A stretch of 64,000 nucleotides of DNA from a virus (IMGVR_UViG_3300020138_000006:1-64000); one strand, 5' to 3'. Shown: positions 736 through 57,410, numbered from the stretch's first letter. A program made the numbers and translations. Notes: a model not told the origin generated them from the letters alone.

Positions 736-946
736 CCCTGCTCCCGTATGGTCTTCCCAACGCCCCGGAACCGTCCCTGTAACCACCTCGCGTGGTCGAT
801 CAGACGGCCGGGGCTTCGCCTTGTCTGGCTTCGCCCGCACGGCGGGCATGTTGACCGACACCGCCCCTCGCGCGCGATGCGTTTTCCACGGCCGCGCAAA
901 ACGCACGGTGTCGCCATCTGCACCACCGGTCGTGTGGACTTGACGG

Positions 947-1228
947 GTGAACATCGCGCGCGTGCCCGACCGGCCAGAGGTCCGTCGCGGCGTAGGAGAC
1001 CGAATCGCGGACGCCCTTCCGATCGGCGGCGACCACTTCCAGATCGGCCTGGAGGTCAGGGTCGTCGACGTCGACGGGTGCACGTGCGTTCTTCGACGGC
1101 ACGCAGTTCTCGTCCACATCGGGAAGCGGCGGGTTCGCACGTTCCCGTTCTTCAGGATCCCGGGCAGGGTTCTTGCCGAACTGTGGGATCCGCGCGACGG
1201 GTTCGAGCACGTGAACGAAGGGCTTTGA
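947..1228 (+). CDS. Hypothetical protein (93 aa)
   Basis: Fills the space directly upstream of the sigma gene with a 1-nt gap. Confidence 0.5.
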   Translation: MNIARVPDRPEVRRGVGDRIADALPIGGDHFQIGLEVRVVDVDGCTCVLRRHAVLVHIGKRRVRTFPFFRIPGRVLAELWDPRDGFEHVNEGL

Positions 1229-1229
1229 G

Positions 1230-2036
1230 TTGGCGACGGAGCGGTACGACCCCGATCGAGAACTTCTCCCGGAGCGTTGGGCTCAGGCGAAGTCAGGCGA
1301 ATCAGCCGCAGTCGCCTGGCTGGTGGAGAGGTACCACTGGCTGGCACTGAAGGTCGCGCGAGCGAAGCCGGTGCCGCCGCACTTCGACCGTGAGGACGTC
1401 GTGTCGTGGGCGAACATGGGCCTGTTCGATGCGGTACGCAAGTTCAAGCCAGAGCAGAACTCTGACGGCAAGCTCCACGAGCACTTCATCGGTTTCGCGA
1501 CGCTGCGGATCCACGGGGCGATCCTCGACGGGATGAAGGCACCCGGCCAGTCATGGGCGACCCGTGAGGTGTGGCGTCAGCACCGTCGGGTGAAGGAGGC
1601 CGAGGAGGCGCTGGAGCAGCTTCACGGTCGGCTGGTGTCCCGTGCTGAGGTTGCAGAGCATCTCGGTGTCGAGGAGCGGGAGATGCCGGTGTTCCGCCAG
1701 CAGATCCCACTCTCGGCAGTGGGGGACGGGGGACTGGATGCCAGCGAGGAACCGATCCCGCACGAGTTCTTCCATGACACGGACACCCCGAGCGACATTG
1801 TCGAGGTCTCGGCCATCGCGGATCGCTTGGCGTGGGCCCTGTCGTTCTTGTCGGACGAGGATCAGGCCTTCATGGCGGACGGGTACGTGCGCGGGGTCGC
1901 CGACTCGGACATCGCAGACCGGTACGAGATCCCGCTGGCGGCTGTGCGTCCACGTCGGGCAGCGATCTTCAACCGGATGTTGGAGCTCCTGAGCCTGTCC
2001 GATCCGTCGAGTGCTGTGCCTGTACCCAGGAGGTGA
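1230..2036 (+). CDS. RNA polymerase sigma factor, FliA/WhiG (sigma-28)-like
   Basis: Region 2 motifs DREDVVSWANMGLFDAVRKF and FATLRIHGAILDGMK, region 3 EVAEHLGV, region 4 HTH DIADRYEIPLAAV. Confidence 0.88.
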   Translation: MATERYDPDRELLPERWAQAKSGESAAVAWLVERYHWLALKVARAKPVPPHFDREDVVSWANMGLFDAVRKFKPEQNSDGKLHEHFIGFATLRIHGAILDGMKAPGQSWATREVWRQHRRVKEAEEALEQLHGRLVSRAEVAEHLGVEEREMPVFRQQIPLSAVGDGGLDASEEPIPHEFFHDTDTPSDIVEVSAIADRLAWALSFLSDEDQAFMADGYVRGVADSDIADRYEIPLAAVRPRRAAIFNRMLELLSLSDPSSAVPVPRR

Positions 2037-2037
2037 C

Positions 2038-2292
2038 ATGGCACGCAACCGCGCACGTACCGCTCAGGTGCGACCCGCGCCCTTCATGCCGTCCGTCGAG
2101 GCCACGGCCGAGCTCGGGGAGAACTCTGAGGTCGAGGAGGTCGAGGTCGAGGACGACGAGGCACAGGACACGGCTCGTGAGCTCGGCTCTGTCGTGACGG
2201 AGCGGGCGGTGCCCTTCGAGGTTCGACCGGACGGATCCATCGCGCACTTCGCCCACGCGAGCGCGCAGATCGCACGAGAGGTGGGCAGCTAG
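2038..2292 (+). CDS. Small acidic hypothetical protein
   Basis: ATG after AGGAGG; acidic EVEEVEVEDDE tract; abuts next gene. Confidence 0.6.
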   Translation: MARNRARTAQVRPAPFMPSVEATAELGENSEVEEVEVEDDEAQDTARELGSVVTERAVPFEVRPDGSIAHFAHASAQIAREVGS

Positions 2293-4234: not shown

Positions 4235-4350
4235 GTCAAGGCGTGTCAGGCATCTAGGTTGCGGAGTTTGCAACAGTGGGTTCCTCTCCGCGCTGTCGCC
4301 CCTCTCGGGGACCAGGTCGATCCATCTCTGTAGACGAGGGAGGGACTCAC

Positions 4351-5413: not shown

Positions 5414-6711
5414 TGGGTATCGCGGCGGACCGTCTCTACCTCGGTGAGGACCTCATCTTCGACTCGTCCACGAGCGAGCAGCACGAGGTCGTCGACATCT
5501 TCGATCGACTCACGGTCGGACCTGACTACGCGGTACTCAACTCGCTGGCCGAGGGCTCGGCCGTGACGGCTGCGATCAGCCCTTTCGGGACGTTCACCGT
5601 CGGGGGGTACGCCCCGATGGCTGTGCGGGACACGGGCAGGTCGGACAGCTTGGTCACGCTGCGGCTCGGGGTCGGCCCCCAGCTGCAGCTCCACCCCCGG
5701 GTGATCGACGTCAACAACTGGATCGGGTGGATGCCGTCGTCGGGGCGCCTGCGGCTCCGGGTCGCCGGCGTGTCGACTGACTCGACGAAGGTCGCGACGG
5801 CCGCGGAGAGCGGCGACTTGATCGACATGCTCACTCGTGAGGACGGCGCCGCCATCTACCGGAACGGCGCCATCCTCCTCGTGATCGACGACCCACGGTT
5901 CGCTGCAGCGACCAGGGTTGGATTCGGCTCGGGAGGCGCCTCGGGGTCCGCAGCGATCTCGACGATGCGGGTGAGCGCCGCACCGAAGGCTCCGACTCTC
6001 GCGGGCGTCGACGCGCAGATCGACGCGGCGACTTCGGTCGAGGACTACGCCGCGGCGCTCGGGCCTGCGCTCGCGTGGGCGGGCGCGTCGTTGCAGATCC
6101 ACACGACCGCCAGCGGCTACTTCTCCGGCAGCTTGAGCCTGTCGGACCCGTCACTGAGGGCATCCGCGAAGGCCGTCGCGCGCTGCCTGGTGCGCCTACC
6201 GTGGCGGTTTCGCTCCGGGCCGCAGCCGTGGGTGCTGCACATCGGCGCCGACCTTCGCTCCGGCGGGAGCTCCGCGTCGGGCCTGACCGTCTCGGACGTC
6301 GATCTCTACATCGCGGTGCCGCCGACAGCGGCGCAGTACGACACCGTCACCTCTGACGATGCGGCCGCGCGGGACCACGTCCTGCACCACGAGCTCGGGC
6401 ATCTCGTCCACATGCGTTCGTCGGCTCCCGGGGCCTCGGCGCTGTCGGCGGCGGTGACGGCCGCGAACCCTCCCGGGTTCTCGTACGGCGGTAGTGCTGT
6501 CGGGGGACCGCGCCCGACAGGCTTCTGCCGCGGCTATGGCACCCAGAACGTGAACGAGGACATCGCCGACGTCATCGGCTGGCTGATGACACCGGCCCTG
6601 CGTGACCAGCTCGACACCTGGTGCGAGACCGACTCGTACCTCGCAACGAAGGTCGCCGCCGTGCGCGCGTTCATGCATGGGCTCGGGTGGGGCACCGGCT
6701 ACTGGTCCTAG
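5413..6711 (+). CDS. Putative virion protein: beta-rich N-terminus plus C-terminal zincin metallopeptidase
   Basis: HHELGHLVH (HExxH) followed by GYGTQNVNEDIA (third-ligand Glu); 1-nt overlap with the collagen gene. Confidence 0.7.
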   Translation: MGIAADRLYLGEDLIFDSSTSEQHEVVDIFDRLTVGPDYAVLNSLAEGSAVTAAISPFGTFTVGGYAPMAVRDTGRSDSLVTLRLGVGPQLQLHPRVIDVNNWIGWMPSSGRLRLRVAGVSTDSTKVATAAESGDLIDMLTREDGAAIYRNGAILLVIDDPRFAAATRVGFGSGGASGSAAISTMRVSAAPKAPTLAGVDAQIDAATSVEDYAAALGPALAWAGASLQIHTTASGYFSGSLSLSDPSLRASAKAVARCLVRLPWRFRSGPQPWVLHIGADLRSGGSSASGLTVSDVDLYIAVPPTAAQYDTVTSDDAAARDHVLHHELGHLVHMRSSAPGASALSAAVTAANPPGFSYGGSAVGGPRPTGFCRGYGTQNVNEDIADVIGWLMTPALRDQLDTWCETDSYLATKVAAVRAFMHGLGWGTGYWS

Positions 6712-6758
6712 AGCCGACGCCCGCGCCGGTTCTTGAAGACCACCACAGGAGGAGACCG

Positions 6759-6836
6759 ATGGGGAGCTTGACGACGAACAACGGCTGGGCGATCGTCGGA
6801 TCAGCCTCCGTCACGCGCGTCTACCTCGCGGGCTAG
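6759..6836 (+). pseudogene. 25-codon ORF homologous to the endolysin N-terminus
   Basis: MGSLTTNNGWAIVGSASVTRVYLAG aligns with endolysin AATNNGWPVVGSTAVTRAYYAG; strong RBS AGGAGGAG. Confidence 0.65.
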
Positions 6837-6840
6837 GGCA

Positions 6841-6865
6841 TTTTGCGCTACCGCGCAGATCTCAC
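6841..6865. promoter_or_regulatory. Degenerate copy of the GCGCTAGCGC motif
   Basis: TTTTGCGCTACCGCGCAGATCTCAC at the junction of convergent operons. Confidence 0.5.
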
Positions 6866-7557
6866 GAAGCCTTCTTGACGAGGTTCGAGACGTAGTCGCT
6901 CGTCACCCCGAGCCGCGCGGCGATCTCCCCGTTCGACAGGCCGAAGGACGACAGGAACTTCGCCTCTGCGGCCTTCTCGGCCGACGAGAGGCCCCGAGAG
7001 AGCAGCCCACCCTTCCCGTCCCACAGCGGGTCGTGCAGAAGGTCCTGGTCGTACTCCTCGGCCCGCTTCCACCCCTTGCCGCGTGCGTACGCACGGCAGT
7101 GCGGGCTCGGGCCGTCCCGGTACGCGAACTCGTCGAGCCACTCGATCATTTCTTCGACGAACGGGCGCGTGCAGGTGTCGGACTTCACGTACACCTCTCG
7201 CGGGAGGTGGCGCTTCGCACTCCAGCCAGCCGCCGCCATGCAGTGGATACGGATCTTCGTTGCCGCGCTAGAGATGAGGTAGACGCTCTCCTGGGGCAGG
7301 TTCGGCAGGGTCCGGAGCTTCTCGATGGTCGACGGGTACACGTACCTGCTCTGCCCTGTCTTGACCTTCCAGATCACCGAGGTGTGCAGGCCTGCCGCAC
7401 GGGCGAGGGCGAAGTGCGACAGGTTGTGCTTCTCCATCTGCCGCTCGATGAGCTCCCGCGCTGTCTCGATGGGCTGGTACCACTGCCAGTCGGGGTTCTC
7501 CAGGCGCCGCAGCTTGCGGTACTTGGCGTTGGCGTACTTCTGCGGCCGGGTGGTCAT
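6862..7557 (-). CDS. HTH DNA-binding protein (XRE-like N-terminal HTH and a C-terminal HTH)
   Basis: NLSHFALARAAGLHTSVIWKVKTG and GLSNGEIAARLGVTSDYVSNL; start moved to ATG 7557. Confidence 0.7.
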   Translation of the reverse strand: MTTRPQKYANAKYRKLRRLENPDWQWYQPIETARELIERQMEKHNLSHFALARAAGLHTSVIWKVKTGQSRYVYPSTIEKLRTLPNLPQESVYLISSAATKIRIHCMAAAGWSAKRHLPREVYVKSDTCTRPFVEEMIEWLDEFAYRDGPSPHCRAYARGKGWKRAEEYDQDLLHDPLWDGKGGLLSRGLSSAEKAAEAKFLSSFGLSNGEIAARLGVTSDYVSNLVKKAS

Positions 7558-7772
7558 TCGCGGCTCGCTCGGGTCGGCGCACTCTCGGCCAGGGGGTGGG
7601 TCAGCCGGCACGTCTGGCGGACGGGGTGCTGTGCGATCGGGGCGTCGATCTCTGCGTCGGGGCAGACGGCGTGCTTCCATGCCTGGTCCTCGTCGGCGCG
7701 GATCAGGTCGCCGGGCTGCCAGCGCTCGCCACAGTCGGGGCAGATGCCGGAGTAGCGGGCCATGAGCGTCAT
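7554..7772 (-). CDS. Small Cys/His-rich hypothetical protein
   Basis: ARYSGICPDCGERW..WKHAVC zinc-binding pattern; 4-nt overlaps. Confidence 0.65.
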   Translation of the reverse strand: MTLMARYSGICPDCGERWQPGDLIRADEDQAWKHAVCPDAEIDAPIAQHPVRQTCRLTHPLAESAPTRASRE

Positions 7773-10683: not shown

Positions 10684-10915
10684 GTGGCTTCCGGGTTCCG
10701 ACGATGGACGGGCGAGGCACGAGCGAGCCCCGTTCACCCGTGGGCCACGGACTGGGGACCACTCGCGCGTCCCAGGTCCTGCGGAACTGGATCTGCCGTT
10801 CGGCTTCACCGCTCACCCATGCGCTCCGATCCAGAGTTGTGTTTCATGCAACAGGATGGTGTACGCGCTCGCGATCGACCTAGCCCCTGCGTTTTCCGCG
10901 CCCGTGGAAACCTAT

Positions 10916-10941
10916 GAGATTTGCGCTAGCGCGGAGATCTC
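10916..10941. promoter_or_regulatory. Palindromic motif, putative operator
   Basis: GAGATTTGCGCTAGCGCGGAGATCTC in the divergent intergenic region. Confidence 0.65.
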
Positions 10942-10984
10942 ACGGTGTTGCCTGTCGATCGGGAGCCGCTCTAGGCTCGGCATC

Positions 10985-11242: not shown

Positions 11243-12115
11243 GTGAGTGCCTACGGGAAGAGCTTCGCCGCACCGCCGCGCCCGGCCCCCGTCGGGTCCG
11301 CCCGAGTGCCTCGACGCCAGGCCGTCAACGCGGCCCCGAAGGTCCAGGCCCATCCGATGCTGAAGTGGCGCGTCGTCGGGCTTCACGGCTTCTCGGCCCC
11401 GGTGCTTGCTCGCACGGGCCTCCAGGCGTCGGATTCGATTGCGTCAGGCATGGTCCTGAGCGATGACATCGTCGCCATCGTTCCGAACGGCCACACGGGC
11501 AGCGAGCCTGTGACTGAGCTCTGGTCGTCGGACATGACGCGGTTCGTCGGCGATCCGTGGGATGCAGAGTCCGGGCAGTCGACCCTGCTGCGAGACGTCG
11601 CGGTCCGCACCCGTGTGGTTGAAGGACGCGAGCTGGCGGAAGGGAAGGCGGCCGCGAGGGAGACCTTCGTGTCGAACAACGCCTGGGGCGGCATTTCCCC
11701 TTGGCCGAATGTGGTGGCGAGCGTGCGGCGCCTGCCTGGGGCATTCGTCTTGCCTGTGGAGATCTCTACTAGGCCGCGCACCATCGCTCACTACGTGAAC
11801 GCCCTGGCCGCGCTTCAGTCCGCTGAGGCCGGCACCTCGGATGGCCACCCGTTGTCCACTCGGCTCCTCGCGCAGTGGCAGAAGCACATCGAAGCTGTCC
11901 GCGCCGCCATTCCCCTTGCCGAGATGGCTCTGCCTGGGCTCCGCGAGGGAGACGGGCGCCCTGGGGACGGGGCAGACATGACTCTGGAGAAGGCGCTGAG
12001 TCTGCGTGATGCGCGCGCCGTCCGGGGGTGGCTGAACGCAGCGCGCATGGTCGTCAGGGCGTCCGAGCCTGAGATCTCCAGAGGCGTGCGCGCGTCCTTC
12101 GATCTCGGCGGATGA
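11243..12115 (+). CDS. Hypothetical protein, first gene of the rightward packaging operon
   Basis: GTG after GGGAGAGGGG; about 290 codons. Confidence 0.65.
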   Translation: MSAYGKSFAAPPRPAPVGSARVPRRQAVNAAPKVQAHPMLKWRVVGLHGFSAPVLARTGLQASDSIASGMVLSDDIVAIVPNGHTGSEPVTELWSSDMTRFVGDPWDAESGQSTLLRDVAVRTRVVEGRELAEGKAAARETFVSNNAWGGISPWPNVVASVRRLPGAFVLPVEISTRPRTIAHYVNALAALQSAEAGTSDGHPLSTRLLAQWQKHIEAVRAAIPLAEMALPGLREGDGRPGDGADMTLEKALSLRDARAVRGWLNAARMVVRASEPEISRGVRASFDLGG

Positions 12116-12181
12116 CGTTTTCCGCGACCGCTAAAATCTCACGGTCCCATCGTTGTGCGCAGTGCAACCCATGATTGACGC

Positions 12182-12931
12182 ATGGGTGGAAAGGGATCCG
12201 GTCGCAGACCTCGGGCCGAGACGATCGCACGCGAGATCGAGAAGCAGCGCGTGGTGGCGCAAGGCCAGGCGGCGGTTGCTGACGAGATGGAGTCCGAGCT
12301 GGAGTTCGTTCCGACTCCCGTCAAGCTCCAGTACGTGAAGCAGCCGACCGGGTCCACCATCCAGGTGCAGGGGGACGCTGAGAGGGAGTTCTACGAGCGT
12401 CAGCGCGACAACTACATGCAGCAGTACAAGTTCACCGAGGTGTCGGACCTGTCGGACCTCGACGCGCTGCTCCTGCACGAGACGCTGGACTTCCGTTACA
12501 CCTCTCAGCTTGCCAGCGGCAAGGCCTACGACGGCAGGGCGCTGGTGTTCGGCGAGGAGGAGCAGTTCCGCCAGAACAAGCTCGCCGAGGCGAAGGTCAT
12601 CGGAGACCTGAAGCGTCAGCTCGGCATCACGCGCGCGGCCCGCGACCAGCAGCAGGGGAACGTCGCGGACTACATCCGCGAGCTCCAGCGCAGAGCCAAG
12701 GAGTTCGGCGTCTACCGCGACGAGCAGAGATCGTTGTCCATCTCTTTGATGAAGGAACTGGAGTCCATCGTCACGACCTGGCAGCGCTCGAACGAGACTG
12801 AGCGGCGCGTCGTCGGCATCGAGACCGAGGCTGACATCGTCACGTGGATCCTGGACACGATGCTCCCCAGGCTTCACGCGTTCGAGGCGGCGTTCCTTGC
12901 GGAGCAGAAGAAGTGGCGGGCCGACCTGTGA
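12182..12931 (+). CDS. Putative terminase small subunit
   Basis: N-terminal MGGKGSGRRP; helical; upstream of terminase large subunit. Confidence 0.55.
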   Translation: MGGKGSGRRPRAETIAREIEKQRVVAQGQAAVADEMESELEFVPTPVKLQYVKQPTGSTIQVQGDAEREFYERQRDNYMQQYKFTEVSDLSDLDALLLHETLDFRYTSQLASGKAYDGRALVFGEEEQFRQNKLAEAKVIGDLKRQLGITRAARDQQQGNVADYIRELQRRAKEFGVYRDEQRSLSISLMKELESIVTTWQRSNETERRVVGIETEADIVTWILDTMLPRLHAFEAAFLAEQKKWRADL

Positions 12932-13482
12932 GCGAACCATGGAGGGACCACTTCGACGATCTGCCGCCGTCGTTCCATCGGCTGCTCGCAGACCTCATGG
13001 TCGAGGCACAGGCGGTCCCGGGGAGGCGGGCGGCCAGGAAGGTCAACCCCGACGGCGAGTCCATGCAGGACATCGTGAACGTCGTCTATCCGAGGCGGTC
13101 GGTGAAGCCCTTCGGTGAAGCGCTGAAGGATGCCACGAAGTACAGCCAGGGGGCCGTGGCGCATCTCGCCGGCATGAACCGGGGCAACCTCGCTCGGATG
13201 GTCGCGGGCCAGGAGCCCTTTACGAAGGACAAGATCGAGCGCATCGCTCGTGCGATCCGCGTCGACCCGGCCTACTTCCACGAGTACAGGGTCCTGGCCA
13301 TCCACGAGATGATCGATGCGGTCCTGTCTCCTGAGCAGAGCCTGCGCCTGTTCGGCCCGACAGAGCCAGATCACCGCGAGCAGCCGCGACCGAAGGGTCT
13401 GAACGCTCCGGACGGGTTCCGGCTCGTTGGCAAGAGCGCTGTTGCCAACGCCGCAACGAGGCGTCGAGCGGCTAGCGCATGA
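12928..13482 (+). CDS. XRE/Cro-C1-type HTH protein
   Basis: YSQGAVAHLAGMNRGNLARMVAG..KIERIARAIRVDPAYF; GTGA overlap. Confidence 0.75.
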   Translation: MSEPWRDHFDDLPPSFHRLLADLMVEAQAVPGRRAARKVNPDGESMQDIVNVVYPRRSVKPFGEALKDATKYSQGAVAHLAGMNRGNLARMVAGQEPFTKDKIERIARAIRVDPAYFHEYRVLAIHEMIDAVLSPEQSLRLFGPTEPDHREQPRPKGLNAPDGFRLVGKSAVANAATRRRAASA

Positions 13483-15107
13483 CCGCGCTCGCACAACTGA
13501 CTGACGAGGAAGAGGCCCTCTTCCAGATCCTCATGGATCCGACCGGCGTCGACATCGCCGAGTTCCTCCTGGAGGACATGGACACCACTGGTGACCCGCT
13601 TCGCTTGTGGCCGTTCCAGTGGCCCTGGACGCACTCGGGCGAAAAGTACGAGGTCGACCAGCTGGCCCGACAGACAGGCAAGAGTCAGAGCGTCGTCTGG
13701 AAGGCGATGGCCCATGCGTTCCAGAACCCGGGGCAGGAGATGCTGCTCGTCGCCCCGCAGCTCAACCACCTCGAACTGCTCACGGCCAAGATCGAGCAGG
13801 CGTTCAACGACGTCCGGCTCCTCAACGAGATGCGGCCCAAGACTGCGTCGAAGGGCCTGAAGAAGAGCCCCCACTGGCAGATGACCTTCCTCAACGCGGC
13901 GCAGATCATCTCCCGACTGGCGTCCTCTCCGGCTGCGATGAAGGGCCCACACCCTGTCGTGATCGAAGGGGACGAAGTTCAGGATTGGATCTACGAGTCG
14001 TATCTAGAACTCATTGAAACGGTAAAGACGAACCACCCGAACATGTCCTGGCGGATGCACGGCGTGTCGAAGGGTGTCGGGCGCGACCTCCACTTCCGCC
14101 TCACCCAGGGGGAGATCGATGGGTCGAGCTTCCATGTCCACCACTACATCGCGGCACACCGCCCGACCTGGACGGACGAGGAGCGCCAGGCGAAGATCAA
14201 GCAGTACGGCGGCGACGAGTCCCACCCGGACTACCAGCGCAACGTGCTCGGTTTGCCAGCCGACGCCGGGACGACACTGTTCGTTGCTGCGCGCCTCATG
14301 GCGTGCGTCCGCATACAGGAGTCCGAGTGGGCGGTGGAGTACAACAACGATGTCTACCGGTGCGTCAAGATCTCTGACGCACTCTTGACGCGGGTCCGCA
14401 AGCACGGGCAGGAGATCGAGAGCCTCATCGACGTCCCCATCTCGCACCTGCGCGACGAGTACGTGTCGTACTGGGCGGGTGCTGACATCGGCTTCACGAA
14501 CGACCCGACTGAGATTCTCGTCTTCGGCACGACCCGCAAGGGCGTTGACCGCCTTCTGCTGCGAGTGCAGCTGGAGCGCATCACGGCCAAGGATCAGGTC
14601 GCTGTGGTCAAGTTCCTGTTCGACTCCTACGGCTCGAAGCTGAAGCGCTTCGGCCTGGACCGCACGGGCGTCGGGCTGCCGCTCTTCCAGGACCTGAGGG
14701 ACGTCAAGGACATCTCGTCGCGCGTCGTGGGCTACAACTTCTCCGAGAACCGCGCAGTGGAGTTCGATGATCGCGACCTGAAGCCGGGGGAGAAGCAGGA
14801 GGACCTCGTCATCAAGCGCAACATCAAGGATCACGCGACCGACCTGCTTCGCAAGAGCGTCGACCAGCAGAAGCTGGAGCTCCCGTACGACAAGGACATC
14901 CTCACCGAGTGGGGTGGAGCCACCTCCTACATCATCAAGACGAACCCGGATGACGACGGGACGAAGCGTCGCTATGGCGGCGGGTCCCTGCACACGCTGG
15001 ACGCAGCTCGGATGTACGCGGCAGCCAAGGGGCTGATGGCCATCGAGGAGATGCTGAACGCCGTGCCCAAGCAGGAGGACGTCATCGACCAGTTCGTCTA
15101 CTTCTGA
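13479..15107 (+). CDS. Terminase large subunit
   Basis: Walker A LARQTGKS, Walker B IEGDE, nuclease GADIG and HTLDAARM. Confidence 0.9.
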   Translation: MTALAQLTDEEEALFQILMDPTGVDIAEFLLEDMDTTGDPLRLWPFQWPWTHSGEKYEVDQLARQTGKSQSVVWKAMAHAFQNPGQEMLLVAPQLNHLELLTAKIEQAFNDVRLLNEMRPKTASKGLKKSPHWQMTFLNAAQIISRLASSPAAMKGPHPVVIEGDEVQDWIYESYLELIETVKTNHPNMSWRMHGVSKGVGRDLHFRLTQGEIDGSSFHVHHYIAAHRPTWTDEERQAKIKQYGGDESHPDYQRNVLGLPADAGTTLFVAARLMACVRIQESEWAVEYNNDVYRCVKISDALLTRVRKHGQEIESLIDVPISHLRDEYVSYWAGADIGFTNDPTEILVFGTTRKGVDRLLLRVQLERITAKDQVAVVKFLFDSYGSKLKRFGLDRTGVGLPLFQDLRDVKDISSRVVGYNFSENRAVEFDDRDLKPGEKQEDLVIKRNIKDHATDLLRKSVDQQKLELPYDKDILTEWGGATSYIIKTNPDDDGTKRRYGGGSLHTLDAARMYAAAKGLMAIEEMLNAVPKQEDVIDQFVYF

Positions 15108-15583: not shown

Positions 15584-17238
15584 TGCCGGCGATCGACACC
15601 GGCGAGGTCGGGGTGGGCTGGGAGAACCAGTCTGATCTCCCAGACTGGCAGGTGCTCCCCACGGTCCGTGAGATCGCTTCCCAGTTGCAGTCGTGGGTCC
15701 GGGAGAACCGTGCCCAGCGCGGCCAGAACGGCTTCTGGATGCGCACGAAGTACGCCACGAAGGACACGCCGTACGAGGTGATGAGGACGGCCAAGCGTGC
15801 CGTTCAGGACGACGACATCGTCTCCGCTGCGTTCGACGTCACCGAGGCGTTGACCCTGCAGGGGGTCGGGTGGGAGGACGCCGACGTTGCATCGGCCGAC
15901 ATCCTCAACCAGATCTCGGCCGACATCGACCTCGACACCTATGCGCGCAGTGCGTACCGAGATCTGGCGACCTACAGCCAGGTCGTCAGTGCCGTCTGGT
16001 GGGAGACGCGCGAGATGAAGCCGCGCGTCCGCTCGGGGGCGAAGCGGACGAAGACCGGGGCCCAGGCACCAGGTCGCAAGTCGTACAGCCTGGTCGTGCC
16101 TACGAAGATCATCACCCTCGACCCCATGCACGTCGTGCCGATCGGCAACCGGTACTTCGGCGAGGACCGGCTCGCGTGGCACGCCACGGATGAGCTCCTC
16201 GAAGCGTGGGCGGGCGTCGACAACGGGACGGTCAACGACGCGACGCTCTCGAACCTCTTCATCGGCCGGTACACGCCGAGCGAGGACGAGAAGGAGTGGA
16301 TGGGCGACGCGGGGATCGACACCTCGAAGCTCATGGAGCTCAATCCGCGGTCTGTCTGGCGGCACACCGCGACCCGGTCGAAGTACGAGCTCTTCCCGGA
16401 CTTCCGCATGCGCAGCATCTTCCGTCTGCTCGACATGAAGCAGCAGCTCATGGAGTCGGATCGGGTCATGCTGGTCGGCGCCGCCAACTACCTGCTCATC
16501 GTGAAGAAGGGCACCGACGCGCAGCCGGGTACCGCGAAGGAGATCGCTGCGCTGCAGCAGAACTTCTCGGTCATGGCCAAGCTGCCGGTCATCGTCTCCG
16601 ACCACCGCCTGGAGATCGAGATCGTCTCCCCGAAGCTCGACCTGACGCTCGTCGACAAGAAGTACGACCTCCTCGACGGCAGGATCCTCGCGAACCTGTT
16701 CCGTGCGCCCGAAGTCAACTCTGGCGCACGCGGTGACCAGACGGCGGGTACCACCTCACGGATGATGGCGCGCCATCTGGAGAACCAGCGACACATGCTC
16801 CGACGGAGCATCGAGAGGCACATCGGCCAGGAGGTCTGGCGCCGTAACAGGCGAGCCTTGGACGACTTCTCGGACCAGGCTCCCTCGCTCGTGTTCATGC
16901 CCCGACACGTACAACTCGACAACGACTCGCAGTTCACCCAGCTCGTGATGGCTGCCCGTCAGCAGCGCGACCTGTCTCGCGAGTCGTTCCTGGAGTTCAT
17001 GGGTTACGACCAGGCGGCCGAGGCGCGTCGTGTCGAGCGCGAGGCAGTGGAGTACGACGACATCTTCAAGACGGTCGTTCCGTTCTCGAAGGCCGGTGAC
17101 GGGGGCGACGGGGAGCCGAGTGCAGTCGCTGGCGCCCGCGGCGGCCGTCCGCAGGGCGGTGGGTCTTCGCCCAGGTCGGCGCAGGGTCAGGTCAAGAAGC
17201 GCACCGCATCCGGTGCGCCGTCCGTCGGAGGTTCGTGA
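15583..17238 (+). CDS. Portal protein (putative)
   Basis: About 550 aa, positioned after the terminase and before protease, scaffold and capsid. Confidence 0.75.
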   Translation: MPAIDTGEVGVGWENQSDLPDWQVLPTVREIASQLQSWVRENRAQRGQNGFWMRTKYATKDTPYEVMRTAKRAVQDDDIVSAAFDVTEALTLQGVGWEDADVASADILNQISADIDLDTYARSAYRDLATYSQVVSAVWWETREMKPRVRSGAKRTKTGAQAPGRKSYSLVVPTKIITLDPMHVVPIGNRYFGEDRLAWHATDELLEAWAGVDNGTVNDATLSNLFIGRYTPSEDEKEWMGDAGIDTSKLMELNPRSVWRHTATRSKYELFPDFRMRSIFRLLDMKQQLMESDRVMLVGAANYLLIVKKGTDAQPGTAKEIAALQQNFSVMAKLPVIVSDHRLEIEIVSPKLDLTLVDKKYDLLDGRILANLFRAPEVNSGARGDQTAGTTSRMMARHLENQRHMLRRSIERHIGQEVWRRNRRALDDFSDQAPSLVFMPRHVQLDNDSQFTQLVMAARQQRDLSRESFLEFMGYDQAAEARRVEREAVEYDDIFKTVVPFSKAGDGGDGEPSAVAGARGGRPQGGGSSPRSAQGQVKKRTASGAPSVGGS

Positions 17239-18092
17239 TGACCGAGTCCATCGCAGAGATCAGGAACCGGCTCCGTCGCAGCCAGCAGTCGGTTCGGGTG
17301 GCTCCTGTCGCGCCCGTGTCGACGGCGAGCCCTGCGCCGGTCTCTGCGGTAGCGCAGGCAGAGACGCACTCCTCCGCGTTCGCGATCGAGGATGCGGGCA
17401 AGACGATCATCGCGACCGCTGTCGAGATGTCGTCGGCCCAGAGCTCCGACTTCTACCTGGACTTCCGGGGTCGCCTCGTCGAGGCCGAACGGGCCAACGG
17501 GAACGGTGCGTTCTGGACGCAGGGCGATCTGCAGTTCGGCCTTCCGAGTGTCGCCTATGGGCCGCTCAACTGGGGGCACGATCCGAAGGCGGTCGTCGGC
17601 ACGCTCCTCGACCCGTACCTGGTCTCGGCCGAGCAGGCTGCGGCATCCGGCCTGGGCCCTCACATCCAGACCGGCGCCCGGTTCTGGTCGTATCTCGACC
17701 CGAGCAAGGCGAACGCTCTCCGTTCGTTCATCGAGCAGGGCAGGGCGTGGCTCTCGATGGAGTGCATCGCGCAGGGCGTGGAGTGCGTCGGGCCCAACGG
17801 CTGCGGTCGCATGAACGACTACATCGCGGCGACGAACCGCACGAAGGACGCGTGCGAGCATGTCCGCGAGCGCTCGTCGTGGCGTCGCATGTTCAACCCC
17901 GTCTTCCAGGGTGCCGCCGTGATCGTTCCGCCGCAGCGCCCGGGCTGGGCGAACGCGGAGATCACCGAGGTGGTGCAGCAGGCGGAGCGTCAGCTGGAGG
18001 CGGCTTCGGCGCCGATCGATGGCTTGTCTGACGAGGACGCGGTCGCGATGGTGACGTCGATCCTACAGTGGTCGCGCCGCTCTCAGGCGTGA
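17235..18092 (+). CDS. Capsid maturation protease (putative)
   Basis: PLNWGHD..VVG and WLSMEC His/Ser motifs; synteny. Confidence 0.6.
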   Translation: MMTESIAEIRNRLRRSQQSVRVAPVAPVSTASPAPVSAVAQAETHSSAFAIEDAGKTIIATAVEMSSAQSSDFYLDFRGRLVEAERANGNGAFWTQGDLQFGLPSVAYGPLNWGHDPKAVVGTLLDPYLVSAEQAAASGLGPHIQTGARFWSYLDPSKANALRSFIEQGRAWLSMECIAQGVECVGPNGCGRMNDYIAATNRTKDACEHVRERSSWRRMFNPVFQGAAVIVPPQRPGWANAEITEVVQQAERQLEAASAPIDGLSDEDAVAMVTSILQWSRRSQA

Positions 18093-46249: not shown

Positions 46250-46261
46250 GGCATATCGGAC

Positions 46262-46699
46262 ATGAACAGTCATCCTGCCGCTCGGGAGCCAATCCCCGAC
46301 CGAGTCGCTCAGCGTGCACTCGCGAGGTTCACTGCGGACGAGTCCGGGTGTCACATCTCGACCTACTCGGTCGGGAGCCACGGGTACGCGCAGATCGGTT
46401 GGGGCGGACGGTCGCGTGGCATGACCACCGCCCACCGAGCGGCATGGGTGGCTGTTCACGGACAGATCCCCGAGGGAATGACTGTCGACCACATCTGCAA
46501 GGTCAGGCGGTGCGTGAACGTCCGGCACTTGCGCCTCCTCTCGAACTTCGAGAACGCGCGCCGGACGAACGGCAACGACTGGCCCTTGGGGGAGTGCGTC
46601 AACGGACACCCCAACTCTGAGCTCCGCAAACGCGGGGCGAAGTGGGTCTGCGGTATCTGCGCGGCTGAGTGGCAGCGCAGATACCGCAGCAGAAAGTAG
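46262..46699 (+). CDS. HNH endonuclease
   Basis: TAHRAAW..IPEGMTVDHICKVRRCVNVRHL..NFEN. Confidence 0.9.
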   Translation: MNSHPAAREPIPDRVAQRALARFTADESGCHISTYSVGSHGYAQIGWGGRSRGMTTAHRAAWVAVHGQIPEGMTVDHICKVRRCVNVRHLRLLSNFENARRTNGNDWPLGECVNGHPNSELRKRGAKWVCGICAAEWQRRYRSRK

Positions 46700-46826
46700 A
46701 GACCAGCCGGACCGGCGTCAACGTCAGCCCCCAACCTCCCTGGACGGGTTGGTCACGGCAGCGATGGCGAAGGAGCAGGGTGCCTTTCCCTTTGCACTGA
46801 TCTCGCCAGCGCCGGTCCGGCGCCTG

Positions 46827-46848
46827 TTTCCCCGCTAGCGCAAAACGC
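46827..46848. promoter_or_regulatory. Palindromic motif copy upstream of primase-helicase
   Basis: TTTCCCCGCTAGCGCAAAACGC. Confidence 0.6.
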
Positions 46849-46860
46849 AAGGAGAGTCCG

Positions 46861-48813
46861 TTGTCCGACCTCGATGTCCGGTCCTACCTGCGAGGTAAGG
46901 GCCTGGAGACACGCACCTCTGGCAAGGAGGTGATCGTGCCGTGCTTCTTCCTCTGCGGAGAGCCAGGGAACTCCCGCAAGAAGAAGCTCTACATCAGCTC
47001 CGAGCATGGAGCGCACTCGTGCAAGGTGTGCGGCACGGAGGGCGGATGGCGGGCGATCCTGGAGCACTTCGGGGATCAGATCGAGGGGACTGCGGCCGCT
47101 AAGCCGTCGCGGCGCCTCGCGATCAACGAGGAGTACGTCAGGGCGTGCCAGGACGCTTTGATGCGGAACAAGGCCGCCCTGACGTACCTCTTCGATCGCG
47201 GTCTCACCTTGGAGACCATCGAGACGGCCCGGCTCGGGTACGCCCCGAAGAACGTGGCTGTCGTGGAAGGCCTGCCTTCCGCACTGAAGCCAGGGGGCTT
47301 CACCCGCCAGGAGCTGCGCGATTCCGGCCTGCTCACCGCGTCGGGCAAGGACTTCCACTCCGGCCGGCTCATCATCCCCTACCTGTCCTCAGGGCAGGTT
47401 CTGCAGGTGCGCGGCCGTGCGCTCGACCCTGCAGACAAGATCAAGTACGCGACGCCTCCAGGTGAGCCGGTCCGGCTCTACAACTCCGACGCCTTGCGAG
47501 GCGCCGAGTCCGCCCTCATCTGCGAGGGCGAGATCGACCTGCTCGTGCTGCAGCAGACCCTCCAGTCTTCCCCGGACGTGCGCGCTCGCAACATCGGCGT
47601 CGTCGCGATCCCCGGGGCCCAGTCTCTGCCGGGCGGCAAGGAGGAGTTCGCGGACTACTTCGAGGACGTCCGCCGCGTCTACATCGGGTTCGACAACGAC
47701 AACGCCGGGAAGCAAGGTGCGGTCAAGGTCAAGGACCTGATGGGGACGAAGGGCCGGATCGTCGAGCTCACCGGCGACGACAAGGACTGGGCCGAGTACA
47801 TCGTCAATGGCACCCACGGGTGGCAGGACGTCATGTCGCTCGTCGTCGAGGCCGACATGCGCGGGAAGCGGGTGTTCTCGGTCGGGGAGTCGCTGCTCTC
47901 GTTGCGCAAGCTGGAGCAGGCCGCGCCGGGCATCAAGACGGGGTTCGCAACCCTCGACGCTCTGATCGCCCCCGGCCTTCTGCCGGGGCAGGTGACGGTG
48001 CCTGTCGCCAAGTCAGGAAACGGCAAGAGCGTGTTCCTCGCGAACATCTGCTGGTACACGCGCGACATCCCGTCGATGATGCTGACGCTGGAGCTGACGA
48101 AGGAGGAGACGGCCAAGCGCCTGCTGCGCATCGGCCGCTTCCACGACCCGGTGCTCGACGAGCGGGCGTTGGACCAGGCGTTCCCCCTGCTTGCGATCGT
48201 CGATGAGAACCGACTCGGGCCCGAGGACTTCGACGTGCTCATCGAGGAGTACGCGGAGCAGCACGGCGAGCGCCCCAGGCTGATCCACGTCGACTACCTC
48301 GGCTACTACTCGCGCGGTCAGCACGGCAAGGACCAGTACGAGAAGTCGACGAACGCCATCATGCAGCTGAAGGAGATGGCCAAGAAGCACCAGGTGCACG
48401 TCATCGTGCCGAGCCAGGTGAACCGCGGCCAGAAGCAGGGCGAGCTCATCGACATGGACTCGATGCGCGACTCCGGTGCCGTCGAGGAGACCGCTGACTT
48501 CATCTTCGGGATCTCCCGTCCGCACATGTCGGGCAACCTCGCGAAGGCCACCGGTAACGGCTCCGTCGCGGCCGAGATGAAGGTCAACCTCCCCAAGTCC
48601 CGGCACGGCAATGCGAACCGTGTGGTGAGCGTCTACATGGGCCCGCACTCGCTCGCGATCGTCGACGGGACTGACCGGAAGGCGGTCGCGGTCGTCGAGC
48701 AAGAGGTCGACTCCTACAACCGAGGCGAGACGTACCCGGAGTACCTGGCACGGCGCCAGAAGTCAGCGTGGCTTGCTCGTCAAGGCGAACTCGACACGGG
48801 GGGTGCGCGATGA
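46861..48813 (+). CDS. DNA primase-helicase (zinc finger, TOPRIM, DnaB-like)
   Basis: CFFLC..CKVC, ICEGEID, GFDNDNAG, AKSGNGKS, HVDYL, SQVNR, SMRDSGAVEETAD. Confidence 0.92.
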   Translation: MSDLDVRSYLRGKGLETRTSGKEVIVPCFFLCGEPGNSRKKKLYISSEHGAHSCKVCGTEGGWRAILEHFGDQIEGTAAAKPSRRLAINEEYVRACQDALMRNKAALTYLFDRGLTLETIETARLGYAPKNVAVVEGLPSALKPGGFTRQELRDSGLLTASGKDFHSGRLIIPYLSSGQVLQVRGRALDPADKIKYATPPGEPVRLYNSDALRGAESALICEGEIDLLVLQQTLQSSPDVRARNIGVVAIPGAQSLPGGKEEFADYFEDVRRVYIGFDNDNAGKQGAVKVKDLMGTKGRIVELTGDDKDWAEYIVNGTHGWQDVMSLVVEADMRGKRVFSVGESLLSLRKLEQAAPGIKTGFATLDALIAPGLLPGQVTVPVAKSGNGKSVFLANICWYTRDIPSMMLTLELTKEETAKRLLRIGRFHDPVLDERALDQAFPLLAIVDENRLGPEDFDVLIEEYAEQHGERPRLIHVDYLGYYSRGQHGKDQYEKSTNAIMQLKEMAKKHQVHVIVPSQVNRGQKQGELIDMDSMRDSGAVEETADFIFGISRPHMSGNLAKATGNGSVAAEMKVNLPKSRHGNANRVVSVYMGPHSLAIVDGTDRKAVAVVEQEVDSYNRGETYPEYLARRQKSAWLARQGELDTGGAR

Positions 48814-52055: not shown

Positions 52056-52382
52056 ATGGGCAGGTCGGTGGGTAGCGCGGCGTTCACCCCGAAGGAGTAC
52101 CGCTTCATCGCACGCACCGATGGCTCCCAGATGTGCGTCAACTACCCGGAGATGTGGTTCTCCGAGAACACGGGCGAGATGAAGGAGGCGAAGCGAGCCT
52201 GCGGCACGTGTCCCTTCATGCTGGGCTGTCGGCTGGAGGGGCTCATCAACGGCAACAACGGCGTGTGGGGCGGCTTGTCGCACGTCGACCGGAAGCGCAT
52301 GGGGGCGACCGAACGCGAGCGGGAGATCAACCGCCTGCAGCGTGAGATTTCCGCTAGCGCTAAGAAGAATCAGGTGGCCTAG
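52056..52382 (+). CDS. whiB: WhiB family transcription factor
   Basis: C..PEMWF..AKRACGTCPFMLGC..GVWGG; four Cys. Confidence 0.92.
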   Translation: MGRSVGSAAFTPKEYRFIARTDGSQMCVNYPEMWFSENTGEMKEAKRACGTCPFMLGCRLEGLINGNNGVWGGLSHVDRKRMGATEREREINRLQREISASAKKNQVA

Positions 52383-54979: not shown

Positions 54980-55503
54980 AGCGCATCGCAGGGCGGGTCC
55001 TCGTCGGGATCCGTGAGCCCCTGGGAGGGGCTCTCCGTCGCGGGTACAAGGACTTCTCCGGGAAGCACTCGCAGATCGAGTACGACGACGGGGACGACGT
55101 CCAGCCAGCAGGTCTGGCCGAGGCGAACATCTACACCTCACAGATCCGCGACGACCCCAGGGGTCGGCACATGGTGATCTTGGACCTGGACGTGCCCGTC
55201 CAGGTGTTCCACTCGGCCAACCCGGGGCACAGTCACCTCTACATCGAGAAGCCCGTCGACGCTGACGACTACTTCCACCTGATGGGTCTGCTCGTCAGGA
55301 TGGGCATCGTCGAGCAGGGGTACCTGGGAGCTTCGCTCAGTCGTGGGTACGGGGTCCTGCGTGCTCCGTGGATGCCGAAGAAGAAGGTGACTCGACCCCT
55401 GGGGGGACTCCTCGCGGAGGAGGCGCGCAGGAAGGCTGAGGAAGCCCGCGAGTCCCAGTTGTTGGCAGACGCCATGGCCTACAAGGCTCTGCTGGCGGCA
55501 TGA
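54976..55503 (+). CDS. Conserved phage protein
   Basis: HMVILDLD..HSANPGHSHLYI..GY..S..RG..LRAPW. Confidence 0.7.
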   Translation: MKRIAGRVLVGIREPLGGALRRGYKDFSGKHSQIEYDDGDDVQPAGLAEANIYTSQIRDDPRGRHMVILDLDVPVQVFHSANPGHSHLYIEKPVDADDYFHLMGLLVRMGIVEQGYLGASLSRGYGVLRAPWMPKKKVTRPLGGLLAEEARRKAEEARESQLLADAMAYKALLAA

Positions 55504-55504
55504 G

Positions 55505-57190
55505 TCACGCGGCGTGATGACGCAGGTCAAGCAACTGAGACACCGTGTGGATAACGGCGAAGTCCCCCTCCGGACACGACTTATCCACACCACCCGAGGC
55601 CAGGGCTTCCGCGAGGAGGCTCTGGCCTTCGTGGTTGTAGATGAGGCGCAGTCCGAGGCCGGCGTAGACCTCGGCCTTCCGCTCGGGGGTCGCCGTGCGC
55701 AGCAGGCCAGCCATGCCACCCACCCGCTCGATGAGCTCGGCCACCTGCTCGGCCGAGAGGGCGTCCTGGGGGCACGACGTGTCGGCGATGCGCCGCTTCA
55801 GATCAGCCACCTGCGCCTCACGCTCCGCCAGCGCCTTCGTGATGGCGTCGGAGATGGTGCCGGATTCGATGACGGACACCAGGTTAGAGACCTTGTCCTG
55901 GGCGTCCCGGAGATGCTTGCGCAGGAGGCCGAGCCCTGCTGGTGGCTGTGCAACCTCCTGCGTGGAGGCCAGCCACTCGGGGTCAGCCAGGGTGTTGACG
56001 ATCCAGTCGTCGACGACCTTCTCCAGCCGGTCGGCGCTCACCGAGACGGTCTTTGGGTGCTGAAGGTCAGCGGGAAGGGAGCGACGGCCCCGGGTGTCGC
56101 AGCGGTAGAGGACTCCCCAGGGGCGCTTCTCTGCCTGCATCCGGTGCTCGCACGCGGCGCAGTAAAGCATCCCGCGCATCGGGTAGGTGTTGACGGTGGT
56201 GCGTGGCTTGCGGCTCCCGGGTGCGCCAGGGTGCGCGAGACGGTCTTGCACGGCGGCGATGGTCTGTTCGTCCACGAGGGCTTCGTGCGTGCGCTCAGCG
56301 GGCCGTACCCAGCCTTCCTGGCCCTTCCAGCGCATCCGCGTCTCGTACCCGGCGGCGATGTCGTCGAGGTCCAGGAGTCGCTCGAACTTCTCCTGCTTCC
56401 CCCAGACGCGGGTGCCGGAGTAGGTGGGGTTGGCGAGGATGGCCCGCACGGCGCTGTGCGACCAGCCTCGGGGGTCCCGGTGGGAGTTACGGGCCCGGTC
56501 GTGCTGGGACGGGGATGGGATGCCTTCGGCGGTCAACAGGTCGGCGATCCCACGGAAGCCTGTGCCGGCGATGTAGAGGTCGAAGATGCGCGTCACGACG
56601 GTGGACGTGACTGGGTCCGGCGCGAGCTTGTGTGCGCGCTGCCCGGAGGCGGCCTTGGCTGGGTTCGGGTGGGGCCCGGCGTCGACGAGCATGTACCCGT
56701 AGGGTGGGCGACCGCCGAGGTGCCGATCGGTTGTGGCGGCGAGGGCTTCCATCGAGGCTCGGGTGCGGATGCGGATGCGGGAACGCTCGCCCTTCGCCAT
56801 CCCGCCGAACATCGTCATCATCATCTCGTGCAGGTCGGAGTCGGGTTCGACGAGGCCTCCGACGTCGGGGATGAACAGCGAGACCCCGTGGTGGGTCAGC
56901 AGGGGGAACGTCAGGGAGAACTGGTTGCCGTAGAAGGCACGCTGGGGTTCTCCGACGACGACACCGTCGAACCGACGGTCAGCACGTGCTGCTTCCGCGA
57001 GGAGCTCGGCGGCTTGGGGGCGCCTCTTCCACGGGATGGAACGCGACTGCCCGATGTCGAAGAACTCGACGCTGACGGCATGCCCGAGGGACCGTACGCA
57101 GTCCAGGGCTCGTCGGATCTGCCATTCGCGGGAGGCTTCGGGGTCCTGTGCGTCTTCCGTCGACACGCGGCCGTAGAAGGCGAGGTCCAT
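55505..57190 (-). CDS. Large serine recombinase (integrase)
   Basis: AFYGRVSTEDAQ catalytic Ser, GGRPPYGY, recombinase domain, zinc ribbon YCAAC..YRC, coiled coil. Confidence 0.95.
   Translation of the reverse strand: MDLAFYGRVSTEDAQDPEASREWQIRRALDCVRSLGHAVSVEFFDIGQSRSIPWKRRPQAAELLAEAARADRRFDGVVVGEPQRAFYGNQFSLTFPLLTHHGVSLFIPDVGGLVEPDSDLHEMMMTMFGGMAKGERSRIRIRTRASMEALAATTDRHLGGRPPYGYMLVDAGPHPNPAKAASGQRAHKLAPDPVTSTVVTRIFDLYIAGTGFRGIADLLTAEGIPSPSQHDRARNSHRDPRGWSHSAVRAILANPTYSGTRVWGKQEKFERLLDLDDIAAGYETRMRWKGQEGWVRPAERTHEALVDEQTIAAVQDRLAHPGAPGSRKPRTTVNTYPMRGMLYCAACEHRMQAEKRPWGVLYRCDTRGRRSLPADLQHPKTVSVSADRLEKVVDDWIVNTLADPEWLASTQEVAQPPAGLGLLRKHLRDAQDKVSNLVSVIESGTISDAITKALAEREAQVADLKRRIADTSCPQDALSAEQVAELIERVGGMAGLLRTATPERKAEVYAGLGLRLIYNHEGQSLLAEALASGGVDKSCPEGDFAVIHTVSQLLDLRHHAA
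55545..55590. other. Putative attP inside the integrase 3' end
   Basis: GTGTGGATAA / TTATCCACAC inverted arms around AAGTCCCCCTCCGGACAC, which resembles a tRNA-Leu T-loop and acceptor 3' end. Confidence 0.7.
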
Positions 57191-57342
57191 CAGTCGACCT
57201 CCTGCTGGACAGCCTCCTGCAGGAGCTTCAGCAGCGCGCGGCCTGCCTTGTCGGGTGGCGTGTACGCCACTGGGGGCACGAACCGGACGTCACGAGAGAC
57301 GGCTTCGTTCCATGTCTTGTCGTGCTTGTTCTGCTCCGCCAT
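57190..57342 (-). CDS. Small protein translationally coupled to the integrase
   Basis: Stop overlaps the integrase ATG; RBS GGAGG-like end; AGRALLKLL helix. Confidence 0.55.
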   Translation of the reverse strand: MAEQNKHDKTWNEAVSRDVRFVPPVAYTPPDKAGRALLKLLQEAVQQEVD

Positions 57343-57384
57343 GTCCGCATGGTCGGCGACGCGACGGTGGTCTGTCACGCCGGT

Positions 57385-57410
57385 GAGATCTCCGCTACAG
57401 CGCAAAACGC
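57385..57410. promoter_or_regulatory. Motif variant in the divergent integrase control region
   Basis: GAGATCTCCGCTACAGCGCAAAACGC. Confidence 0.5.

Follow-up and report, generated by a model that had tools for sequence, protein, structure and literature searches.

Background

The temperate Streptomyces phage phiC31 carries well over a dozen copies of a conserved 17-bp intergenic inverted repeat, bound by its repressor c, a large protein encoded near the integrase. KorB of RK2 acts on 12 palindromic operators (OB) lying at variable distances from promoters, some of them directly upstream of the -35 element, and dimers of controller (C) proteins bind two adjacent dyads beside a promoter and can both activate and repress. 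In Cluster O mycobacteriophages (Corndog), which also encode Ku, a 17-bp palindrome (TGTTCGGNNNCCGAACA; TGTTCGG-N3-CCGAACA) was described in 34 copies, mostly intergenic with some in genes, at positions shared by members and free of orientation, its function being not known (PMC4351075). The stoperators of Cluster A phages are quoted in that paper as asymmetric sites of 13 bp that follow the direction of transcription and are each occupied by a monomer (PMC4351075). In these Cluster A systems (PMC6550527, PMC9283540), one phage protein, the immunity repressor (L5 gp71 and relatives), has many sites between genes and within operons, and a block of elongation as well as of initiation is proposed. 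Dispersed actinophage palindromes have been noted since the Cluster O study without a named binder. The element considered here is a 28-bp dyad repeated over the genome of an uncultured, temperate phage of high-GC bacteria (an actinophage). The stretch analysed, IMGVR_UViG_3300020138_000006:1-64000 (64,000 nucleotides, one strand, hereafter the window), opens a virus record of 80,879 bp and 67% G+C, of which it covers the first 64 kb. Three DNA runs labelled ant metagenome, a possible source, are the only public runs in which this DNA is listed; no RNA run is among them. Sequence comparison suggests that the dyads are probably operator or roadblock sites for one conserved, twofold-symmetric DNA-binding protein encoded by the phage.

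Structure and enrichment of the dyad

Aligned copies defined a repeat unit of 28 bp, composed of two 12-nt arms around a 4-nt centre that is mostly GCTA: TGMGWTYTCCGC-GCTA-GCGCAAAWCKCA. The earlier note on this stretch, made by a model from the sequence alone, had centred on a perfect 10-bp palindrome at operon boundaries; that palindrome is peculiar to this one phage and reflects the GC with which one arm ends and the other begins, the functional unit being the 12-4-12 dyad. With a position weight matrix (PWM), 17 sites were found genome-wide (80,879 bp), 14 of them in the window. The six good copies of the note all scored as members of this one motif, as did five of its six degenerate copies; 4285-4299 is not a member (best PWM score -2.6), and what had been read as a half copy at 39438 is the full site 39434-39461. 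Five sites had escaped that first reading, namely 21865-21892 and the weak 34837-34864 in the window, and 65161, 71692 and 74670 beyond it.

Queries with the large terminase, the sigma factor, the Cro/C1-type (XRE) protein introduced below and a conserved leader retrieved five relatives, whose large terminases are 51-67% identical to that of this phage:

G001: IMGVR_UViG_3300012974_000535, 34-kb fragment with 8 sister-motif sites
G002: IMGVR_UViG_3300012827_000001, 84 kb with terminal repeats, 17 sister-motif sites
G003: IMGVR_UViG_3300048577_000420, 87 kb, 20 sister-motif sites
L164: Ga0182021_10010854, 10.8 kb with one pair of sister-motif sites
L167/L174: IMGVR_UViG_3300014502_000248, 26 kb, 5 sister-motif sites (L174)

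No close relative was found by megablast in the GenBank phage collection, where the best terminase match was Caudovirales GX15bay (36% identical large terminase, and devoid of such a motif), and no prophage relative was found in species genomes with the large terminase as query.

The repeats clearly exceeded background. The exact string GCGCTAGCGC occurred in three copies (10923, 24268 and 39469) versus 0.22 expected, which no shuffle attained, and the seven copies of CGCTAGCG (1.35 expected) were likewise unmatched in every shuffle. The initial PWM returned 37 strand-hits, where Markov shuffles yielded 4.6. When trained on the other phages only, the matrix retrieved eight sites in this genome (0.9 in shuffles), and cross-trained matrices retrieved 16 in G002 and 15 in G003, each against 0.1. 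Thirteen of the 17 sites are not wholly within a gene, while non-coding DNA represents ~10-11% of the genome (binomial P ~4e-8), and the mostly intergenic placement described in the earlier note held.

CTAG was depleted about five- to ten-fold, with 52 occurrences against 245 expected here and 24 against 232 in G003. Despite this avoidance, 10 of the 14 GCTAGC hexamers of this phage and seven of the eight of G003 lie in sites, a concentration that shows selection for the sequence itself. The outer arms retained G-WWW-C even where complementarity breaks, for instance with GAAAC on both sides. A literature text search with the motif strings gave only primers and unrelated text.

Genes (124 calls, from third-position GC) were annotated by Pfam and PHROG scans. 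The sites, with PWM scores in brackets and known counterparts in relatives, are as follows:

878-905: centre GGCC, between the Lsr2 gene and the small-gene/sigma operon 947-2036 (31.1); counterparts before the sigma operon at 23261 in G002 and 26108 in G003
6837-6864: convergent boundary, directly after the stop of 6687-6836 and overlapping the 3' end of 6862-7680 on the minus strand (31.9)
10888-10915: tandem pair 1, distal and weaker copy with centre GCCC, located in a 600-bp divergent intergenic region, 27 bp to its partner (28.3)
10915-10942: proximal, strong member of tandem pair 1 (39.0)
12114-12141: shares bases with the stop codon of the 290-aa gene 11243-12115, the 249-aa small-terminase-like gene starting 40 nt further on, at 12182 (31.8); counterparts at 4871 in G001, 33717 in G002, 38408 in G003 and 6163 in L167/L174
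18093-18120: immediately follows the stop codon of the 285-aa head gene 17235-18092, with a scaffold-like gene 90 nt further on (37.8)
21865-21892: in a variable loop of the structural gene 21752-22204 (28.7)
24258-24285: 86 nt before the 496-aa tail gene 24372-25862 (34.7); counterparts at 17321 in G001, 48842 in G002 and 52142 in G003
34837-34864: weak site in the tail gene 32839-35142, detected by the genome's own model only and of doubtful membership (27.6)
39434-39461: tandem pair 2, distal copy; the leftward gene 39081-39341 starts 92 nt away (29.4)
39461-39488: proximal, strong member of tandem pair 2 (36.4); counterparts of the pair, also spaced by 27 bp, at 64292/64319 in G002, 67681/67708 in G003 and 6368/6395 in L164
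46822-46849: its end lies 11 nt from the TTG that starts the primase-helicase gene, with only a Shine-Dalgarno sequence in the interval (29.8); counterparts 9-10 nt before the start at 70870 in G002 (one base after tRNA-Leu) and 72788 in G003
52343-52370: in the last codons of WhiB (52056-52382), 16 nt before the ATG at 52387 of a conserved 79-aa gene (30.0); counterparts at 76283 in G002 and 79129 in G003, with orientation flipped between phages
57384-57411: divergent region upstream of the leftward serine-integrase operon (34.0); in relatives, sites lie 104 nt before the serine integrase (G003) or beside the tyrosine integrase (G002)

As had been proposed, copies thus precede the packaging, capsid, tail, replication, primase and integrase units.

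Conservation of position and concerted change of the motif

All five relatives carried a sister motif, CGATTCCTGC-GCTA-GCAGGAATCG, with 17-20 copies per full genome. At least eight syntenic site positions were common to the relatives while the motif version differed. A 27-bp tandem pair lies beside the small leftward gene in this phage, G002, G003 and L164, its promoter-proximal copy being always the stronger. Three phages have a site 9-11 nt before the primase-helicase start, and this phage, G002 and G003 have one directly before the 79-aa gene that follows WhiB. The site at the stop of the 290-aa gene, 40 nt before a 249-aa small-terminase-like gene, was found in five phages. Even an intragenic site occupies homologous codons, at 21865 here and 45795 in G002, each in its own motif version. 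The type of integrase has been swapped in this lineage, being serine here (55505-57190) and in G003 (84920-86578) and tyrosine in G002 (729-1244), and a site is kept beside each.

Multi-copy, palindromic and mostly intergenic repeats may also represent a selfish or recombination-associated element, or sites linked to restriction-modification; their cores contain GCTAGC and GCGC, a C5 methyltransferase is encoded, and its gene (40508-41731 here) comes after tandem pair 2 in three phages (this one, G002 and L164). Scattered positions would be expected of a mobile element, whereas those found here remained syntenic at ~65% large-terminase identity. G003 has 20 sites but no methyltransferase orthologue, centre variants with neither CTAG nor GCGC are common among the sites, and neither a transposase nor a tyrosine transposase associated with REP (repetitive extragenic palindromic) elements was found in Pfam scans. 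Such an origin appeared the least probable of all those considered.

A distant relative, L179 (IMGVR_UViG_3300045995_000532), displayed a third dyad of 28-30 bp, CGACGTTCTGA-N6-TCAGAGCGTCG, in at least four copies over 22 kb. L179 dyads were located at 5700-6070, 17450-17479 and 19821-19850; three copies are clustered in non-coding DNA ~2 kb upstream of the small-terminase-like gene, as a counterpart of the 10.9-kb control region. With three motif versions in the lineage, the genome-wide dyad is a lineage trait whose sequence changes in concert. The sister pattern and the version of this phage were otherwise encountered in viral contigs only in the known relatives, apart from chance matches.

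The several versions could also reflect different hosts, if the sites were bound by a host transcription factor or nucleoid protein exploited by the phages. The motif is indeed stable over five phages with differing presumed immunity regions and integrases, and the replication promoter adjoining tandem pair 2 is host-type-like (TGTCRGTG-N8-TAGNGT). However, when 185,579 species genomes were scanned with the sister-motif pattern TCCTGCGCTAGCAGNAA, the matches listed were scattered singles across unrelated phyla and included no actinobacterial genome or locus with several sites, a result that is itself weak. Moreover, site 71692 is of the relatives' version among 16 sites of this phage's own version, which fits phage-borne drift better. 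A host factor was judged unlikely.

Double-stranded site versus RNA hairpin

A 12-4-12 dyad is foldable, and the sites might act as RNA or single-strand hairpins, that is as terminators without U-tract, RNase III-type processing sites or stabilisers of mRNA ends, comparable to the RNase III sites located between genes of T7 or to REP sequences. Several copies of G002 form perfect 12-bp stems (-20 to -25 kcal/mol), many sites begin within 3 nt of a stop codon, one G002 site directly follows a tRNA gene, and canonical U-tract terminators of the window, like canonical sigma-70 promoters, were not above shuffles. Selection on pairing was nonetheless not apparent. Watson-Crick pairs between arms numbered 129, 55, 147 and 135 in the four genomes considered, against 131, 54, 152 and 146 after shuffling, and compensatory pairing was found in none of them. 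Mean folding energy of the sites did not differ from that of random genomic 34-mers in this phage (-9.5 versus -9.2 kcal/mol) and hardly did in G003 (-11.0 versus -9.1); only G002 was clearly higher (-13.1 versus -8.7). In this phage, the intragenic copy 21865-21892 is the sole one forming a near-perfect hairpin (-24 kcal/mol), and the conserved primase site pairs at only 6 of 12 positions.

Orientation and placement pointed in the same direction. The GCTA centre was co-directional with transcription in 17 cases and anti-directional in 10, and it flips between phages at syntenic sites, so that the loop in the transcript would alternate between GCUA and UAGC. Each tandem pair precedes its adjoining promoter, and if the site 10 nt ahead of the primase gene were a terminator, that gene would be left promoterless. 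A terminator scan called no site, the U-tract after the stem being absent, and Rfam gave no match on the whole window or on the conserved leader. Because covariation is absent, G-WWW-C is kept, folding energy is ordinary and the centre flips, the conserved feature appears to be double-stranded sequence and not an RNA fold, and hairpin functions were considered very unlikely.

Promoter-linked tandem pairs

Two control regions displayed a promoter-like element directly next to a tandem pair:

10915-10977: proximal site of pair 1 (10915-10942), 5 nt, TTGCCT (10948-10953), 18 nt, TAGGCT (10972-10977); rightward and promoter-like
39461-39524: proximal site of pair 2 (39461-39488), 5 nt, TTGCGC (39494-39499), 19 nt, TAGTGT (39519-39524); promoter-like, for the replication module

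The block of pair 2 is conserved without gaps in four phages, as site, 5-6 nt, TTGCSN, 19 nt including TGTCRGWG, and TAGWGT; L164 matches this layout except that its spacer is 3 nt shorter. A promoter-like element within 12 nt of a site was found for six of 124 site flanks and for none of 4000 random positions. Site centres would fall at about -56 and -83, upstream of the -35 hexamer, the pair covering roughly -43 to -97; activators typically occupy such a position, as do factors that act on the alpha subunits of polymerase. Sites located 9-16 nt before gene starts, at stop codons or within genes allow only a role as roadblock, insulator or repressor. These positional hints are opposite, and the bound protein might repress or activate. 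The suggestion of activator sites for the phage sigma factor is possible but not favoured: the two pairs abutting a -35-like hexamer agree with activation, and the sites lying 9-16 nt before starts suit a roadblock or repressor only.

That the motif itself is, or contains, the promoter of the sigma factor (1230-2036) was regarded as highly improbable. A sigma-70-family gene is present in all full-length relatives and sites precede most transcription units. Unlike promoters, which are directional, the sites however face either way and change direction between phages at syntenic places, and ahead of the primase gene or the 79-aa gene a start site with its leader could not be accommodated. A 28-bp dyad does not resemble a -35/-10 pair, its distance to the gene start is not fixed (9 to >300 nt), and its distance to GTCGAGTG, a second repeat, varies from 5 to 29 nt, that box occurring also without a site.

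Several neighbouring signals were observed. Between 39489 and 39681, the promoter-like TTGCGC, a 19-nt spacer including TGTCAGTG, and TAGTGT are followed by a leader of ~170 nt kept in five phages. Its end is a terminator-like hairpin, GGGCGGCAC...GTGCCGCCC with a T run, directly before the first replication gene, and the leader looks like an attenuator or a small RNA. The TGTCRGTG-N8-TAnnnT part of its promoter resembles the mycobacterial RecA-independent DNA-damage promoter. The repeat GTCGAGTG was found on the plus strand only, in gaps of the head and tail block (15133, 18150, 21260, 24307 and 25887), 8-76 nt before gene starts, downstream of a dyad site or alone, and is syntenic in G001-G003; possible readings are a late-promoter element served by the phage sigma factor or a signal associated with starts.

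Candidate binders

Two conserved genes were considered with respect to the sites:

12913-13482, plus strand: 189-aa protein with a Cro/C1-type helix-turn-helix (HTH) of the XRE type, between the small-terminase-like gene and the large terminase; candidate binder
39081-39341, minus strand: small conserved gene with a core of ~50 aa, always beside tandem pair 2, in six phages

The 189-aa protein (XRE-189) matched Pfam HTH_31 (E 1e-6; 29.3 bits for a cut-off of 27), in keeping with a five-helix domain of the HTH_3/HTH_31 type. The core of its AlphaFold2 model had a predicted local distance difference test (pLDDT) of 90-96, its best fold matches being C.AhdI, C.BclI, 434 Cro and P22 c2; Foldseek gave a probability of 1.00 to C.AhdI, 434 Cro and P22 c2, with template modelling (TM) scores up to 0.73 on the target. 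Every relative encodes a homologue, flanked in each case by the small-terminase-like gene and the large terminase, and at least 19 homologues occur in public data. Neither the XRE family nor the small-terminase-like family gave a significant profile match to PDB sequences. Recognition helix 3 starts with NRGN in this phage and its closest homologue, with NPG[S/T/N] throughout the clade displaying the sister motif, and with NVAS in L179, so that the start of this helix suggestively tracks the three motif versions. Among the binders proposed in the earlier note, XRE-189 was the best, on account of its fold and its presence in every relative; it is tentatively put forward as the most likely binder, its binding being a prediction.

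The other proposals fared less well. The dual-HTH protein (6862-7680) has a 31% identical homologue in G003 and an unrelated protein in its place in G002; G002 has no detectable homologue and yet shares the motif with G003, which makes this protein an unlikely binder. Lsr2, the sigma factor and WhiB are conserved in the relatives, but none of them is known to read long GC-rich dyads, and WhiB and Lsr2 are accordingly disfavoured. A binder of ParB/KorB type was rejected, no ParB N-terminal domain having been found in the phage proteins scanned; a weak HTH_ParB match (E 0.003) lies in the non-conserved dual-HTH protein. The product of 39081-39341 had a pLDDT of 75, no fold match, no sign of a DNA-binding fold and two sequence homologues only. 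The 290-aa protein flanked by sites gave no lead in Pfam, PHROG or Atlas.

Proposed mode of action

The network of sites for a dimeric regulator, operator or stoperator in the wording of the earlier note, withstood the tests described above (no covariation, ordinary RNA stability, flips of the centre, concerted change), and its binding to protein is predicted. Recognition would involve the inner half-sites (CCGC/GCGC here, CCTGC/GCAGG in relatives) through two successive major grooves ~9 bp apart, and the outer G-W-W-W-C tracts through shape or minor-groove contacts. The sites would partition the genome into ~15 transcription units. At the two divergent control regions, where 27-bp pairs abut a -35-like hexamer, the bound protein would modulate initiation; single sites after stop codons or before ribosome-binding sites would serve as roadblocks or insulators between units. 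One factor could in this way control the replication, sigma, packaging, head, tail and integrase blocks. Such a binder is more likely a conserved developmental regulator than an immunity repressor, since one motif version spans five phages with different integrases and unrelated presumed immunity regions.

Several observations weigh against this proposal or against the binder chosen for it. The conserved, non-palindromic GCTA centre is not explained by a strictly symmetric dimer, and no single sign of action fits all sites, those linked to promoters being activator-like and those near starts suggesting a repressor or roadblock. The link between XRE-189 and the motif rests on three classes at the level of lineages, confounded with phylogeny, and other residues of helix 3 vary inside a clade with one motif. 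The gene is located within the late packaging operon, an odd spot for a master regulator, and a crude search detected no repeated motif in the distant XRE-bearing relatives L175, L176 and L178.

A more specific, and rather doubtful, version of the operator hypothesis takes the Cro/C1-type protein encoded between the terminase genes as a whole-genome switch made together with the packaging genes, and not as an immunity repressor. Its occupation of 17-20 sites, at every unit boundary and even within a head-tail gene, would, for example, shut off transcription of the replication, integrase and sigma genes and clear polymerases before packaging, and it would keep one specificity in phages whose integrases and immunity regions have been exchanged. 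If true, this would define a punctuation regulator acting across the lineage and separate from stoperator immunity.

Genome layout and further observations

The main blocks of the genome are the following:

230-583: Lsr2 gene
1230-2036: sigma-70-family protein, forming the operon 947-2036 with a small gene
Next in order: lysis and tail-fibre genes
6862-7680, minus strand: dual-HTH protein, at the end of a leftward block
11243-39105: packaging, head and tail block, with the large terminase at 13578-15107
Replication block: C5 methyltransferase (40508-41731), nuclease, RecA-like ATPase, primase-helicase (46861-48813), resolvase and WhiB (52056-52382)
55505-57190, leftward: serine integrase, in the integrase operon 55505-57345
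Up to the right end: long leftward arm

The small-terminase-like 249-aa gene (12182-12931; MGGxGSGRR) has a conserved ATG without a properly spaced Shine-Dalgarno sequence. An A at -11 and a T at -7 of its start are conserved in three of four phages, and because of this conservation its message may be leaderless. The tRNA-Leu(CAA) of G002 (70795-70868; 10795-10868 in L015) lies directly before a site and the primase gene; the counterpart of this region here is a 611-bp gap (46250-46860), and no tRNA was found in the window. In an alignment of three sigma factors, that of G002 (gene 23607-24368) is missing some nine residues from the helix-turn-helix of region 4.2; should this deletion be real, the protein may be unable to read a -35 element.

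Comparison with known systems

The nearest described system appears to be the 17-bp palindrome of Cluster O. Both are many-copy dyads, mostly intergenic, syntenic and without orientation rule. They differ in sequence and in architecture (7-3-7 there, 12-4-12 here), and copies are about half as many here; Cluster O phages have no integrase, whereas the present lineage is temperate and has two tandem pairs abutting promoters. As sequence and architecture differ, the resemblance is best read as analogy and not homology.

Cluster A stoperators are similar in the dispersion of their sites between genes and within operons, but the sites found here are 28-bp dyads without orientation bias, lacking the asymmetry and the orientation of stoperators. 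Cluster A motifs also track immunity groups, while here one version spans different integrases and no repressor candidate is shared. An analogy exists with phiC31, another temperate actinophage with a many-copy intergenic inverted repeat, whose repeat is shorter (17 bp) and whose binder is a large repressor encoded near the integrase.

The controller proteins C.AhdI, C.BclI and C.Esp1396I were the best structural matches of the XRE-189 HTH (root-mean-square deviation of 1.4 Å over 57 residues), and their tandem operators resemble the 27-bp-spaced pairs found here. However, they act on one operator region and are ~80 aa long, against 17 sites and 189 aa with additional N- and C-terminal parts here, and the resemblance is at the level of fold only (Foldseek E 5e-3). 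KorB shares a palindromic operator scattered over the replicon but belongs to the ParB family, of which no N-terminal domain was found in the phage proteins scanned.

If confirmed, the dyads would illustrate the coordination of ~15 transcription units by a single factor in a large temperate phage, and would provide a portable operator-regulator pair for high-GC hosts. The present lineage is a tractable case, with three motif versions, fixed syntenic sites, two conserved promoter-linked pairs and one conserved HTH candidate; the theme itself recurs in phages, and this instance of it, while well supported, is an ordinary one.

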